IMG/VR virus record: IMGVR_UViG_3300047557_002769
Span: 99,235 to 163,234 of that record
Reading direction: 5' to 3' (one strand)
Length of the DNA: 64,000 nt
DNA from: a virus
Shown: piece after piece, positions 899 to 4,622 of the stretch
How the letters are laid out: every line of letters begins with the position of its first letter
Numbering within the stretch: the first letter of the stretch is position 1
Translations under genes and position numbers: made by a program
The notes under the pieces: model-generated
Databases searched by the model: none
What the model was told of the DNA's origin: nothing
What the model saw: only the letters and a program-made list of their open reading frames with translations

Positions 899-972
899 TG
901 GTGCTGCTAGCAAGAATCGAACTTGCGTTACCGCCTTACCAAGGCGACGTAATACCATTATACTATAGCAGC
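899..972 (-). tRNA. tRNA-Thr(GGT)
   Basis: cloverleaf, anticodon loop TT-GGT-AA, encoded CCA. Confidence 0.93.
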
Positions 973-976
973 ATAT

Positions 977-1053
977 TGGCCCGTCCTGAAGAATTCGAAT
1001 CTCCAACCTCTGAGTTCGTAGCCCAGTGCACTATCCAGTTGTGCTAAGGACGG
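977..1053 (-). tRNA. tRNA-Arg(ACG)
   Basis: loop CT-ACG-AA, CCA. Confidence 0.93.
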
Positions 1054-1056
1054 TTA

Positions 1057-1131
1057 TGGATGCGGGAGACGGAATCGAACCGCCGTTCTCCAGGTTATGA
1101 GCCTGACGAGATACCTCTTCTCCATCCCGCG
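1057..1131 (-). tRNA. tRNA-fMet(CAT), initiator type
   Basis: loop CT-CAT-AA; C1:A72 mismatch; 5' CGCGGG. Confidence 0.88.
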
Positions 1132-1137
1132 TAATTT

Positions 1138-1212
1138 TGGTGGTGATAGTTGGTAACGATCCAACCTGTGAGGCGTATGAAACCCCTGCATATCCGTCTA
1201 TGCTATATCACC
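1138..1212 (-). tRNA. tRNA-Met(CAT), elongator Met or Ile2
   Basis: loop TT-CAT-AC; T-loop variant ATCGTTA; CCA. Confidence 0.82.
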
Positions 1213-1213
1213 G

Positions 1214-1306
1214 TGGTCCCCGAGGTGAGATTCGAACTCACGACCTGCCGCTTATCTGGCGCTGACGGGGTATAAATCCGCTGCTCTACCGCTGAGCTAC
1301 CCGGGG
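1214..1306 (-). tRNA. tRNA-Ile(TAT) with long variable arm
   Basis: 93 nt; loop TT-TAT-AC; ~23-nt variable region; A73-CCA. Confidence 0.85.
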
Positions 1307-1311
1307 TAAAT

Positions 1312-1401
1312 TGGCCGAGAGTCAGGGAGTCGAACCCTGTGACCGTATTACTACAGTCTACGGATTAGCAATCCGCTGCATTACCATCCTGCCCACTCTC
1401 G
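1312..1401 (-). tRNA. tRNA-Ser(GCT)
   Basis: loop TT-GCT-AA, long V-arm, G73-CCA. Confidence 0.93.
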
Positions 1402-1405
1402 TTAT

Positions 1406-1495
1406 TGGAGGAAGCGGTGGGATTCGAACCCACGGACCGCTTTCACGATCGCTAGTTTTCAAGACTAGAGCCATCAACCACTCGACCACGCTTCC
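1406..1495 (-). tRNA. tRNA-Ser(TGA)
   Basis: loop CT-TGA-AA, long V-arm, CCA. Confidence 0.93.
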
Positions 1496-1500
1496 TTAAT

Positions 1501-1576
1501 TGGTGCCGCCTCTCTGTTACGATCAGAGTTCTCTGGTTCTTCAGACCAGCGTGAGGACCACCTTCACCAAAGCGGC
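1501..1576 (-). tRNA. tRNA-Phe(GAA)
   Basis: loop CT-GAA-GA; T-loop variant ATCGTAA; CCA. Confidence 0.88.
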
Positions 1577-1580
1577 ATAT

Positions 1581-1654
1581 TGGGTTGAACCGGGGAATCG
1601 AACCCTCTCTACTTGTTTCACGGACAAGTGTGCGACCACTACACTAGGAACAAC
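1581..1654 (-). tRNA. tRNA-His(GTG)
   Basis: loop CC-GTG-AA; G-1:C73; two U-U mismatches in acceptor stem. Confidence 0.82.
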
Positions 1655-1660
1655 ATTAAC

Positions 1661-1734
1661 TGGCAGGGATGCTTGGAATCGAACCAAGGACACGGGAATC
1701 AAAATCCTGTGTGATACCATTTCACCACACCCCA
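1661..1734 (-). tRNA. tRNA-Gln(TTG)
   Basis: loop TT-TTG-AT, CCA. Confidence 0.9.
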
Positions 1735-1744
1735 ACAAAAAAAC

Positions 1745-1820
1745 TGGTCTCCGTAAGAGGATTTGAACCCCTACCGCCTGACCCCAAATCAGGAACGCTG
1801 CCAGATTACGCTATACGGAG
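1745..1820 (-). tRNA. tRNA-Pro(TGG)
   Basis: loop TT-TGG-GG, CCA. Confidence 0.92.
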
Positions 1821-1828
1821 AATAAATT

Positions 1829-1907
1829 TGGTGGACCCAATGACCAGCTACAGTCAATGCCCGCAACCAGGGTTACTGGCGGTCGCTCTTATTGCTACCG
1901 AGGGCCC
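1829..1907 (-). ncRNA. tRNA-like small RNA with Ala-type acceptor stem
   Basis: GGGCCC...GGGTCC-ACCA (G3:U70, A73), but no canonical D, anticodon or T loops. Confidence 0.65.
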
Positions 1908-1917
1908 ATAAATTGTT

Positions 1918-1993
1918 TGGTGGAAGATAGGGGAATCGAACCCCTGACTCCGACTTGCAAGGCCGGCGTGTTCCCAATTAGCACCAATCCCCC
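1918..1993 (-). tRNA. tRNA-Ala(TGC)
   Basis: loop CT-TGC-AA, G3:U70, CCA. Confidence 0.93.
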
Positions 1994-1996
1994 ATT

Positions 1997-2080
1997 ACCA
2001 TATTGAAGCACACTAGCACCACAGCAACCGGCTCAATGGCGGGGAGTCGAACCCACTTTGTTAATGCACTTCAATATGGC
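1997..2080 (-). ncRNA. conserved-stem RNA cassette, copy 1
   Basis: GCCATATTGAAGTGCATT...AGTGTGCTTCAATATGGT closing stem; cargo contains GGG-TTCGACT-CCC T-arm. Confidence 0.7.
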
Positions 2081-2292
2081 CCCAGCCCCTACACTGGGTA
2101 CATATTGTCTTCTGAGTCGGCAGAAGATTTTATCTCCTGTTGTTCCGCGTTTCTCGGACGACGATCCTCAGGCCTAGACATCCGTATGCGAAGTCCACCA
2201 TCACTCGCATATTTTTAATGACGGGGCTTTCACCCGCCTCGGTATTGTTTGCTCTGCTAACCACTAGGGAATGTGGCAACAAGAGTACCGGG
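2077..2292 (-). ncRNA. putative structured ncRNA ending in CCA
   Basis: no credible ORF; hairpins TATGCGA/TCGCATA, TCTTCTG/CAGAAGA, CCCGGTA/TACCGAG; 3' GCCA. Confidence 0.5.
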
Positions 2293-2306
2293 ACTAATTG
2301 TTAATC

Positions 2307-2381
2307 TGGTGCATCGTGAGAGGATTGAACTCCCGACCTTGGCCTTGTAAGGGCCCTGCTCTACCGCTGAGCTAACGATGC
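2307..2381 (-). tRNA. tRNA-Val(TAC)
   Basis: loop CT-TAC-AA, CCA. Confidence 0.93.
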
Positions 2382-2387
2382 GTAATA

Positions 2388-2480
2388 TGGTGGGTGTCCA
2401 CGGAGTCGAACCGCGAATGTTTACCACGAGGGACCGGATTTACAGTCCGGTGCAGCACACGCCTTAGCTGCAAGACACCC
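2388..2480 (-). tRNA. tRNA-Tyr(GTA)
   Basis: loop CT-GTA-AA, long V-arm, atypical D-arm, CCA. Confidence 0.88.
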
Positions 2481-2488
2481 ATAAAACT

Positions 2489-2565
2489 TGGCTGACCAGG
2501 TAGGGATCGAACCCACGACATCGTGATTAACAGTCACGCGCAACTACCAACTGTGCTACTGGTCA
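2489..2565 (-). tRNA. tRNA-Asn(GTT)
   Basis: loop CT-GTT-AA, CCA. Confidence 0.93.
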
Positions 2566-2573
2566 AAAAACTC

Positions 2574-2649
2574 TGGAGCGGGTAATCGGTTTCGAACCGA
2601 TGGCCTTAACTTTGGCAAAGTTACGCTCTACCAACTGAGCTATACCCGC
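2574..2649 (-). tRNA. tRNA-Gly(GCC)
   Basis: loop TT-GCC-AA, U73-CCA. Confidence 0.93.
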
Positions 2650-2652
2650 TTA

Positions 2653-2765
2653 ACCATATTGAAACACACTCGACGGAATCGAACCGTCCACCTCTGCTCC
2701 ATACGGGGCAAGGCTGTATCCAGTCAGTAGGCTTGTACTTTGCCTTGAATGTGCTTCAATATGGT
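2653..2765 (-). ncRNA. conserved-stem RNA cassette, copy 2 (tRNA-mimic cargo)
   Basis: ACCATATTGAAGCACATT...AGTGTGTTTCAATATGGT; cargo has D-arm-like CTG-ACTGGATA-CAG and T-arm GACGG-TTCGATT-CCGTC. Confidence 0.72.
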
Positions 2766-2896
2766 CTCGGGTTTGCACCGAGATCACCGACTAAACGGCT
2801 TTCGCTAGTGATTCACTCATATTACTTGCAGGTCATATGAGGCTCTATGCGATGCTTAAAGACTGATTAAAAGGGCCTGCATTAGTTACCAGTCTC
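2762..2896 (-). ncRNA. structured ncRNA with putative kissing loops, ending in ACCA
   Basis: AGACTGGT/ATCAGTCT and CTCATAT/ATATGAG hairpins whose loops carry TGCAGG and CCTGCA; terminal CTCGG/CCGAG-ACCA. Confidence 0.6.
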
Positions 2897-2900
2897 AAAA

Positions 2901-2986
2901 ACCATATTGAAACATACTGCACTAGTCAATTGAATACAGTTGACCAGTCTTCCTTATCAGTGAAGCGCAATACGTTTCAATATGGT
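2901..2986 (-). ncRNA. conserved-stem RNA cassette, copy 3
   Basis: ACCATATTGAAACGTATT...AGTATGTTTCAATATGGT; cargo hairpin ACTGGTCAACTG/CAATTGACTAGT. Confidence 0.7.
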
Positions 2987-3059
2987 GCCCCAGAGGAGAC
3001 TCGAACTCCTAAAATTTGGCTTCTAAGACCAACACGTATACCAATTCCGTCACCAGGGC
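2983..3059 (-). tRNA. tRNA-Leu(TAG), short variable arm
   Basis: loop CT-TAG-AA; 77 nt, no long V-arm; A73-CCA. Confidence 0.88.
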
Positions 3060-3068
3060 ATTATAACA

Positions 3069-3097
3069 ATTATATATTATCTTATTTTTAAAATCAA
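3069..3097 (-). promoter_or_regulatory. sigma70-type promoter inside the tRNA array
   Basis: TTGATT-N17-TATAAT. Confidence 0.7.
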
Positions 3098-3098
3098 C

Positions 3099-3173
3099 TG
3101 GCGGTCCCAAGGAGTAACGATCTCCTTCTTCATGCGTGACAGGCATGCGTGCGTCCATGAACACTTTGAGACC
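3099..3173 (-). tRNA. tRNA-Asp(GTC)
   Basis: loop CT-GTC-AC; T-loop ATCGTTA; CCA. Confidence 0.9.
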
Positions 3174-3180
3174 TTATGAA

Positions 3181-3410
3181 TTTGTTAAGCGCCAGCCACC
3201 ACATACATCGGCTGCATTATCCGCAAATTATCCCGGGTGCGGTTATGATCGGATAAGCTCTTTTACAGATAACTTATCTTCACCTAGGGTACGTCACAAT
3301 AATAATCAGCAGGCGGGTGCCATGGTACGTCCTTGAACCGTCACCTTTTTACTATGCTAGATCTTGCAAAATCATCACACAGTGCCTTTTATTAGAGACA
3401 CACTTAACAA
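3181..3410 (-). ncRNA. putative ~230-nt ncRNA closed by an 11-bp terminal stem
   Basis: TTTGTTAAGTG...CGCTTAACAAA ends; internal hairpins GATAAGTT/AGCTTATC, CCGCA/TGCGG, CAGCC/GGCTG. Confidence 0.55.
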
Positions 3411-3414
3411 AACT

Positions 3415-3489
3415 TGGTACTCCTGAAGGGTTTCGATCCCTCTTTTCCGCCTTGAAAGGGCAGCGTCCTAGCCAGTAGACGACAGGAGC
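3415..3489 (-). tRNA. tRNA-Glu(TTC)
   Basis: loop CT-TTC-AA; T-loop ATCGAAA; CCA. Confidence 0.9.
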
Positions 3490-3496
3490 ATTATTC

Positions 3497-3570
3497 TGGC
3501 ATCCCGGGAGGGACTCGAACCCCCACAAACGGTTTTGGAGACCGCTATGCTGCCATTACACCACCGAGAT
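3497..3570 (-). tRNA. tRNA-Trp(CCA)
   Basis: loop CT-CCA-AA, CCA end. Confidence 0.92.
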
Positions 3571-3571
3571 A

Positions 3572-3883
3572 TTAATAACCGTTTGCGAATACGGTTTTTT
3601 GAGTAACTTCTTGAACAAAGGCACCGCATGTATACGTATCACCTTGTCTTGCGACGTTACGACCGTTCGCAAATACATTAGGGCTAAACGAGTTGATAGT
3701 TGTTGAATAAACAGGTGGGCAGTGCGTGTGTGGAGTATTCGTATCATCTTTACGATGTATTCCTACCCCTGCAACAAACACATTCGTAGAACAACTTAAA
3801 GTTCTAATAAGCCCCGGAACAATACATACCGGGTGTCCCGTGTTAACAATATCAACCTCGTCGCCTCTTGCAATTAATGGCAT
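3572..3883 (-). CDS. PAAR-domain baseplate spike tip protein (T4 gp5.4-like)
   Basis: MPLIARGD...NVFVAG...HTHC...NVFANGRNVARQGD..CG; start moved to ATG 3883 after GGAGG RBS. Confidence 0.85.
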   Translation of the reverse strand: MPLIARGDEVDIVNTGHPVCIVPGLIRTLSCSTNVFVAGVGIHRKDDTNTPHTHCPPVYSTTINSFSPNVFANGRNVARQGDTYTCGAFVQEVTQKTVFANGY

Positions 3884-3915
3884 ATTATCCTCCTTTTTAT
3901 ATTTAGGATAATAAC

Positions 3916-3993
3916 TGGAGTATCGGGTCAGATTCGAACTGACGGTTTTACGGATTTGCAATCCGTTGCCTTTGACCGCTCGGCCACCGATAC
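3916..3993 (-). tRNA. tRNA-Cys(GCA)
   Basis: loop TT-GCA-AA, U73-CCA. Confidence 0.92.
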
Positions 3994-3995
3994 AC

Positions 3996-4122
3996 TACCA
4001 TATTGAAACACACTGCACTATCTAGATGCTTAAGTAGCTGTCACCGGCCGGTTTGTATCTACTATCTACACCCTACGCTCTCTTGGCCAAGAGAATGGCT
4101 TGCAATGTGCTTCAATATGGTA
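3996..4122 (-). ncRNA. conserved-stem RNA cassette, copy 4
   Basis: TACCATATTGAAGCACATTGCA...TGCAGTGTGTTTCAATATGGTA; cargo with TCTCTT/AAGAGA and TAGAT/ATCTA helices. Confidence 0.7.
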
Positions 4123-4191
4123 GGGCTGGAGGGTAACGATCCCTCTTCTACGGATTAAAAGTCCGTTGCTTCACCTTAAAGCTTCAACCCC
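4118..4191 (-). tRNA. tRNA-Lys(TTT)
   Basis: loop CT-TTT-AA; T-loop ATCGTTA; CCA. Confidence 0.9.
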
Positions 4192-4195
4192 AATA

Positions 4196-4269
4196 TGGTA
4201 CCCACAACAGGTAACGATCCTGTGTCTCTCGGTTATCAGCCGAGTGCTCTACCTTTGAGCTATGCGGGT
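4196..4269 (-). tRNA. tRNA-Ile(GAT)
   Basis: loop CT-GAT-AA; T-loop ATCGTTA; CCA. Confidence 0.9.
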
Positions 4270-4291: not shown

Positions 4292-4304
4292 TTTTTAAAG
4301 AACA
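4292..4304 (-). promoter_or_regulatory. boxA-like antitermination site
   Basis: TGTTCTTTAAAAA vs rrn boxA TGCTCTTTAACA, between the promoter and the first tRNA. Confidence 0.65.
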
Positions 4305-4316
4305 ATTGATAGAAGA

Positions 4317-4345
4317 ATTATAACTCATCTATCGTTATTGCGCAA
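4317..4345 (-). promoter_or_regulatory. proximal sigma70 promoter of the tRNA array
   Basis: TTGCGC-N17-TATAAT. Confidence 0.72.
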
Positions 4346-4369
4346 CTGTTACGACGACTGTTACGCAAT

Positions 4370-4401
4370 AAAAAACCCCTAGGGTTTTGAAGCCTAGGGG
4401 T
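4370..4401 (-). terminator. intrinsic terminator (attenuator terminator)
   Basis: CCCCTAGG-loop-CCTAGGGG followed by TTTTTT. Confidence 0.85.
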
Positions 4402-4437
4402 ACGTGTTTAGAACAGTTTACTCTTTACACGTACCCC
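4397..4437 (-). promoter_or_regulatory. antiterminator hairpin overlapping the terminator 5' arm
   Basis: GGGGTACGTGT (4437-4427) is the perfect reverse complement of ACACGTACCCC (4407-4397). Confidence 0.78.
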
Positions 4438-4538
4438 GGTGGATTATCCCACTCTGAGGCCACACAAATGCCAAAGCGATAGCCGGGCATTTGACTGCCT
4501 GTCGATCTCTTTGTTAGTTGATGCATTTGTGTTAACAT
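4425..4538 (-). CDS. leader peptide containing all 20 amino acids (MLTQMHQLTKRSTGSQMPGYRFGICVASEWDNPPGYV)
   Basis: hand translation; ATG 7 nt after the -10 box, no SD (leaderless); last codons and stop lie on the antiterminator arm. Confidence 0.78.
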   Translation of the reverse strand: MLTQMHQLTKRSTGSQMPGYRFGICVASEWDNPPGYV

Positions 4539-4544
4539 ACGTGA

Positions 4545-4573
4545 ATTATAAGCTATTTCTTAACTTTGTGCAA
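4545..4573 (-). promoter_or_regulatory. distal promoter driving the leader peptide
   Basis: TTGCAC-N17-TATAAT, same form as the phage early promoters. Confidence 0.8.
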
Positions 4574-4622
4574 CTGTTACATTGCGTGTTTCGTACTAAT
4601 ATATAGGCTTGAAAGACTATTT

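Follow-up and report, generated by a model that had tools for sequence, protein, structure and literature searches.

A leader reading frame with all 20 amino acids probably couples translation to transcription of a phage tRNA gene array

The DNA analyzed here, a window of 64,000 nt, is part of a complete T4-like phage genome of 163,234 bp. The major capsid protein of the phage is 66-67% identical to its counterparts in the Pelagibacter phage Mosig and the Methylophilales phage Melnitz, and the DNA sequencing runs that matched the genome were freshwater metagenomes. On the minus strand, 23 tRNA genes, which together cover 20 amino acids, form an array at positions 899-4269, and four further tRNA genes just beyond the left end of the window bring the total to 27. 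A boxA-like element, TGTTCTTTAAAAA (4292-4304, minus strand), lies ahead of the first tRNA gene. Between the array and a methyltransferase-like gene, which is located behind a DUF932 gene, the same strand carries the leader element that is the subject of this study. The element was recovered with 0 differences in DNA contigs from two freshwater runs, one of which may be the run that the genome itself came from.

Several further features were observed in and around the array. Four inserts between tRNA genes (4122-3996, 2986-2901, 2765-2653, and 2080-1997, all on the minus strand) share one long closing stem (CCATATTGAA ... TTCAATATGG), and the enclosed sequences are unrelated. A gene with a PAAR motif lies within the array (3880-3572), and the gene for a tRNA of 93 nt with a UAU anticodon and a long extra arm (1306-1214) has similar counterparts in the loci L001, L006, and L172. 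A permuted tmRNA gene is located outside the window (genome C1, 48424-48815), and the phage may also supply the rescue of stalled ribosomes.

The leader is preceded by a sigma-70-type promoter, TTGCAC-N17-TATAAT (4545-4573, minus strand), which is one of a family of like promoters of this phage and the position of which is kept in the homologues. The ATG at 4538 is situated 6 nt past the -10 box and opens a leaderless ORF of 37 codons (4425-4538, minus strand), which lacks an SD motif and contains all 20 amino acids. Ten amino acids are present once each, and the twentieth, Asn, first appears at codon 32. The promoter, the ORF with its complete composition by codon 32, and the lack of an SD motif were thus found where a preliminary description of the locus had placed them, and the same is true for the boxA-like site, the 23 tRNA genes, and a second sigma-70-type promoter (4317-4345, minus strand), which lies below the terminator and bypasses it. 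The preliminary description had also proposed to calculate how often a complete set of 20 amino acids occurs in random 37-codon ORFs. The values were 0.35% for uniform random ORFs and 0.7-0.9% for shuffles of the leader ORF, and thus 0.4-0.9% over both. For stop-free 37-codon windows of this genome the value was 0.14%, and one of the 280 ATG ORFs of 30-45 codons in the genome holds all 20 amino acids. Taken alone, the complete ORF of the window might simply have been picked by luck.

Upstream of the leader promoter, a CCTATATATT box (4597-4608, minus strand) is conserved in several homologues; judged by its sequence, it is a possible variant of a T4 late-type promoter. Within the L171 group, TATAAATA and TATATATA replace each other inside a palindrome at the promoter of the leader. 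The leader peptide had no Pfam match, and the Rfam models did not assign the leader RNA to a T-box, a riboswitch, or any other Rfam family, the sole sub-threshold hairpin match being NsiR1 (E 1.6).

The 3'-part of the leader RNA can form two mutually exclusive structures. In the first, the 5'-arm of an antiterminator (segment 2; 4427-4437, minus strand), which comprises codons 34-38 of the ORF, pairs over 11 bp with a 3'-arm (4397-4407, minus strand), which overlaps the 5'-arm of the terminator (segment 3). The second is an intrinsic terminator (4370-4400, minus strand), in which 4400-4393 pairs with 4383-4376 and which includes a U6 tract. Both pairings had been proposed previously and were confirmed. 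Three features were added, namely a promoter-like site inside the array (3069-3097, minus strand), which is outside the control of the switch, a long 5' hairpin within the ORF (4462-4532, minus strand; 4532-4523 with 4471-4462), and the limited sequestration of the terminator arm, which involves CCCC only, plus AGG through the outer helix. The apical stem of the long hairpin (4499-4486) matches a covarying 4-bp hairpin that is present in the middle of the ORF in the alignment of the homologues, and the hairpin is a candidate pause element for RNA polymerase. A 1:2 protector hairpin was not found in the leader RNA, and, therefore, read-through is expected when the leader is not translated. Codons 33-35 encode Pro-Pro-Gly (4442-4434), exactly where the ribosome covers segment 2. 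Pro-Pro-Gly is a slow translation motif and could hold the ribosome over segment 2, favoring termination; it is not conserved in the homologues.

The leader transcript had a folding z score of -4.8. When the full window transcript was folded with a ribosome walking along the ORF, the probability of the terminator was at most 0.07 without a ribosome (0.01) or with a ribosome at codons 2-32, and it was at least 0.9 from codon 33 on. The flip from read-through to termination thus occurred in silico right after the twentieth amino acid, Asn32. The proposal in the preliminary description that a ribosome at the end of the ORF leads to termination, and a ribosome stalled earlier to read-through, was thereby reproduced computationally. 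The helicase site of the ribosome is located at +11 from the P site; this value was used for the footprint, and a footprint that is 3 nt longer or shorter moves the flip by one codon. With transcripts cut just past segment 3, the terminator arm was sequestered without a ribosome and up to near the end of the ORF in 18 of 18 leaders. Equilibrium folding of full transcripts with all upstream RNA masked did not result in switching for L015, L169, the L171 group, L174, L293, and the phage X1. This can be attributed to the order of synthesis, which is ignored by this approach; switching was observed in the test with truncated transcripts.

Relatives were retrieved through the DUF932 gene, a route that does not select for the leader. 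It yielded 11 loci with a related element heading a tRNA array, in each of which the AUG lies 5-8 nt below the -10 box. These loci have seven distinct ORFs, six of which are complete for the 20 amino acids; the remaining one lacks Ala. Further leaders were found in viral and metagenome contigs with a DNA pattern of the three arms, which forces the pairing but not the peptide, so that segments 2-4 of these members pair by construction. When several ORFs lay over one pattern match, the most diverse ORF was taken; the chosen ORFs also have an SD motif or start at the -10 box, and they stop 6-22 nt past the arm. Besides the window leader, 21 leaders of 31-43 codons were obtained, 17 of which hold 20 amino acids and four of which hold 19. 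They form 11 clusters that are 8-38% identical to the window leader, and 8 of the 11 clusters are complete. When neutral drift was simulated up to these distances, 20 amino acids were retained in 0.3-0.9% of the runs and at least 19 in 4-7%; the clusters share ancestry, and P-values are therefore optimistic. The residues absent from the leaders with 19 amino acids do not correspond to absent tRNAs. Alternative frames were closed in 47 of 48 cases. One subgroup has a leaderless start behind a sigma-70 promoter, and another one has an AAGGA-type SD motif and mostly a T4 late-type promoter. The boxA-like element occurs in most homologues.

Several other searches did not add members to the family. 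The exact antiterminator pattern of the window had no match in viral contigs, the leader element had no blastn match among cultured phages, none of the pattern matches in genome contigs fitted the family profile, and the neighbors of the PAAR gene yielded no new leaders. The tRNA regions of RSP15, BUCT-ZZ01, CC2, FBB1, D69, and Acj9, some of which possibly do not include the array start, did not contain such a leader.

The arms of the switch vary in concert. The inner antiterminator helices have wholly different sequences and still pair, with z scores of -5 to -6 in the window, L190, L174, and L210; the inner helix is weak in L169 and L171. The consensus of the arms is GAGGG/CCCUC; the arms of the window depart from it jointly in the three segments, and CUGGG/CCCAG is found in phage X1. 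Segment 3 of the window was misaligned by MAFFT, and the automatic covariation counts for this helix are uninformative. The position of the switch relative to the composition of the ORF was also compared. In half of the leaders (11 of 22), the last new amino acid is encoded by the final codon at which the ribosome still leaves segment 2 accessible. With a strict footprint, all 20 amino acids are encoded upstream of the switch in 13 of 22 leaders and 17-19 in the others; in L172, Gly is found only inside the antiterminator arm. It had been suggested to inspect homologous loci for such an ORF and for covarying arm pairs, and, indeed, the ORF, its complete composition, and the switch are all retained there despite the drift of the peptide.

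The alignments indicate that selection acts on the frame of the leader, and not on the peptide. Cys and Arg exchange positions between L001 and L002, Cys is spread over eight alignment columns, single-base indels alter the last residues without touching the amino-acid set (L006 versus L008), and the C-terminal tails frameshift freely. The pN/pS ratio is about 0.7 in the leader, versus 0.1-0.2 in DUF932 for the same pairs. The high ratio stems mainly from a low pS, and, therefore, the leader is constrained as nucleotides, either by structure or by codon identity.

Codon usage was analyzed in 12 cluster representatives. For Leu, Ser, Arg, and Gly, both codon boxes were sampled in 11, 12, 12, and 11 of them, respectively, while 7-10 would be expected, which extends to the family the previous observation that the leader samples several synonymous codon classes. 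NNU codons account for 9 of 133 codons in the four-codon boxes of Ala, Pro, Thr, Val, Leu, and Ser in the leaders, versus 43% in the genes of the phage, and for 0 of 12 in the window leader. This avoidance is confined to frame 0 and is gone in frames +1 and +2, and the two-codon NNY boxes show the opposite trend; therefore, it does not reflect base composition. ACA, TCA, and AGA each occur in 9-15 different columns, although shared ancestry inflates the codon P-values. The phages X1 (5 of 16) and BUDD (4 of 15) do not share the NNU bias. By standard wobble rules, NNU codons of these four-codon boxes would be readable by two isoacceptors, and NNA and NNC would depend mostly on one. An NNU codon would thus be a poor sentinel, and hence the census is presumably taken at the level of tRNA species.

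Short tRNA arrays offered a further comparison. The leader is absent in five close relatives that have only 4-8 tRNAs downstream. Relatives with a short array and no leader (L004, 4413-4620; L005, 7262-7468; L007, 8113-8320) have, directly before tRNA-Asp, a conserved element that is non-coding and about 210 nt long, for which no Rfam match was found. Four pattern matches with the same arm sequences precede short arrays, and their short leaders match the cargo. A Leu/Ser/Tyr leader precedes Leu, Ser, and Tyr tRNAs (L222, 2493, and L297, 2236; both minus strand), a Tyr/Thr/Ala leader precedes Tyr, Thr, and Ala tRNAs (L280, 4192, plus strand), and an Ile/Glu/Arg-rich leader precedes Asp, Ile, Glu, and Arg tRNAs (L197, 7419, minus strand). 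A leader with all 20 amino acids, heading a complete array, is the extreme of this series.

A similar layout was also found in two cultured Xanthomonas phages, X1 (OQ427096.1; L346, 1285-1462) and BUDD (L368, 1524-1700). Both have an unannotated 39-codon ORF before their tRNA arrays, with 19 and 18 amino acids, respectively, together with an antiterminator, a terminator, and a boxA. In the X1 record, the leader occupies positions 135559-135678. Their sequences point to a shared layout, and homology with the leader family is not claimed. The paper on phage X1 does not mention a leader attenuator.

A few candidates were left out of the counts. L274 looks, by eye, like a cobalamin riboswitch. L206 has a 43-codon ORF with all 20 amino acids (2299-2489, minus strand) and the same terminator, on a bacterial-looking contig without tRNA genes; it was treated as a chance occurrence, and it might alternatively be a cellular version. 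In L247 (4829-5025, minus strand) and L177, a 45-codon leader with all 20 amino acids precedes 22 tRNAs, and the antiterminator arm lies past the stop codon. The arm itself is followed by a U tract there, i.e. the geometry is different.

The locus contains the parts expected of an attenuator: a short ORF under selection for its frame between a promoter and the controlled genes, a terminator, an antiterminator at the end of the ORF, and codons placed before the arm. We consider it likely that the element is a ribosome-mediated transcription attenuator, the leader of which takes a census of the decoding machinery. The observed anatomy, its conservation, the selection on frame, composition, and codons, and the exclusive folds in silico are the basis of this model, which further postulates translation of the ORF, stalling, its timing, a signal in vivo, and a feedback. 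RNA polymerase would start at or beside the AUG, generating a leaderless mRNA. If codons 2-32 were read without delay, the ribosome would move onto segment 2, the antiterminator would not form, and the terminator would stop transcription before the tRNA genes. If a tRNA species were missing, because a host anticodon nuclease had cleaved it, because it was degraded in the course of the infection, or because it was not charged, the ribosome would stall at or before codon 32. Segment 2 would then pair with segment 3, and transcription would pass boxA into the array. Read-through would also be predicted if translation did not occur at all. Once the phage tRNAs had restored decoding, the switch would close, forming a negative feedback loop. 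A pause that allows the slow leaderless ribosome to catch up with the polymerase is a candidate, hypothetical element of the model. In this genome, the switch would add inducible output on top of the downstream promoters.

The phage thus probably makes more of its own tRNAs when ribosomes stall for lack of any tRNA. The preliminary description had proposed that loss of any charged tRNA is sensed, and the census of all 20 amino acids agrees with this. The proposal can be narrowed, as the codons chosen and the kind of output favor the sensing of tRNA-species loss over plain amino-acid starvation. Destruction of tRNAs would be the likelier selective signal because extra tRNA cannot cure amino-acid starvation; phage tRNA arrays have been described as a counter to host anticodon nucleases (PMC10264068). 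With less confidence, but on balance, we favor the more general view that large lytic phages run a homeostat on host decoding. In it, a minimal leader with all 20 amino acids and codons read by one tRNA would respond to the loss of any tRNA with the full replacement set, and the leaders of small blocks would be the same device tuned to its cargo.

Other explanations were weighed against a census of the decoding machinery. The best of them, to which we would give only a slim chance, is that the attenuator reports nothing but whether translation is on or off, e.g. after initiation failure, ribosome damage, or antibiotic action, with single codons too weak to matter and completeness secondary. 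Read-through is the default without a ribosome, and both bmrB and whiB7 answer antibiotics. In theory, single regulatory codons give low sensitivity, and one codon per amino acid is expected to be the least sensitive attenuator design (PMC1183508), which may be the weak point of a single-codon census. Sensing by the whiB7 uORF requires no more than one Trp codon (bioRxiv 10.1101/2023.06.02.543512). An on/off device leaves unexplained that completeness, both codon boxes, and NNU avoidance have been kept over 60-90% peptide divergence, and that the leaders before short arrays are matched to them.

Only marginally less probable is that the switch is real in the family and contributes little in this genome, the array being supplied by the promoters at 4345 and 3097 in any case. 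Both match the consensus of the phage no worse than the leader promoter. A sigma-70-type promoter below the terminator is present in 16 of the 22 family members, so that the caveat about a bypass in the preliminary description was justified, and one more promoter lies inside this array; therefore, the gain of the switch may be small. Against a negligible role, the window leader is undecayed, with 20 amino acids, no NNU codon among 12, and an antiterminator of the strongest class. Moreover, L001, L002, and L174 lack a bypass promoter, and the switch is the only gate there.

It is quite improbable that the ORF encodes a functional small protein, or that the terminated RNA of 165 nt acts in trans, the terminator merely ending a small gene. 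A pN of 0.08-0.2, which resembles the low values of protein genes, nearly invariant His, Phe, and Trp positions, synonymous sites under 3-6 times the constraint seen in DUF932, and a well-folded RNA would agree with such a function. The pN/pS ratio near 0.7, the frameshifted tails, the residue swaps, and the lack of Pfam or Rfam matches argue against it, and the conserved competing helix would be superfluous for a plain terminator. A chance ORF in a structured intergenic region, unremarkable alone at P of about 0.005 as a post hoc pick among hundreds, is practically refuted by the homologue set, as the finding is repeated in independent homologues and terminator-pattern matches far from tRNA genes almost never carry such an ORF.

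Why phages carry tRNA genes has been an open question for more than 50 years, according to PMC10264068, which offers a likely purpose of the output of the census and, in its abstract, concerns the tRNAs themselves. A switch before the array would record what the phage watches for, namely failure of decoding at any codon, and sensing at any codon fits the replacement of destroyed tRNA better than a constant compensation of codon usage. What trips the leader during infection would be what the tRNAs are for, which makes the question testable, and X1 and BUDD, as cultured phages with the same layout, are testable models. The leader would represent an inducible counter-defense sensor made of RNA only, and a 170-nt reporter for the activity of any tRNA-targeting system.

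The leaders trpL, hisL, pheL, thrL, and ilv consist of a short ORF, an exclusive 2:3 antiterminator and 3:4 terminator, and chosen synonymous codons. Leaders of the trpL/hisL type have repeated codons for one to three amino acids and a 1:2 protector that leads to termination without translation, and they control biosynthesis or synthetase genes. The phage leader shares with them the short ORF, the exclusive 2:3 and 3:4 helices, and the synonymous codon choice. In contrast, two marks of this type, the enrichment of cognate amino acids and the 1:2 protector, are missing, as each amino acid occurs about once and a protector was not found, and the genes controlled are those of tRNAs. The bmrB leader of the B. 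subtilis bmrCD genes also resembles the phage leader, with a small ORF, alternative stem-loops, and a response to translation stress; it differs in that induction needs bmrB translation, in that it answers antibiotics, and in that its target is a transporter (PMC4191407).

The closest known mechanism is the uORF attenuator of whiB7/wblC in mycobacteria and streptomycetes, the likeness being one of mechanism, without a claim of sequence homology. Full translation of the whiB7 uORF leads to a Rho-independent terminator, whereas stalling or loss of the start codon leads to an antiterminator and read-through, and in M. smegmatis the starvations that are sensed depend on the composition of the uORF, which contains 19 of 20 amino acids (bioRxiv 10.1101/2023.06.02.543512). 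Default read-through and a broad amino-acid content are shared with the phage leader. The whiB7 uORF is bacterial, controls a transcription factor, and is enriched in Ala, and its completeness is not conserved across species. The phage leader, in contrast, is phage-borne and followed by T4-like phage tRNA genes instead of whiB7/wblC of actinobacteria, it controls these tRNA genes, its 31-43 codons are close to the shortest length that can hold 20 amino acids, and its completeness is conserved. In the literature covered, which included few subscription papers, no description was found of attenuator or feedback control of phage tRNA genes. The view in the preliminary description that the device is undescribed thus holds for the phage tRNA target and the selection for completeness, which are new here, and not for the principle, which has already been published in bacteria for the whiB7 uORF.
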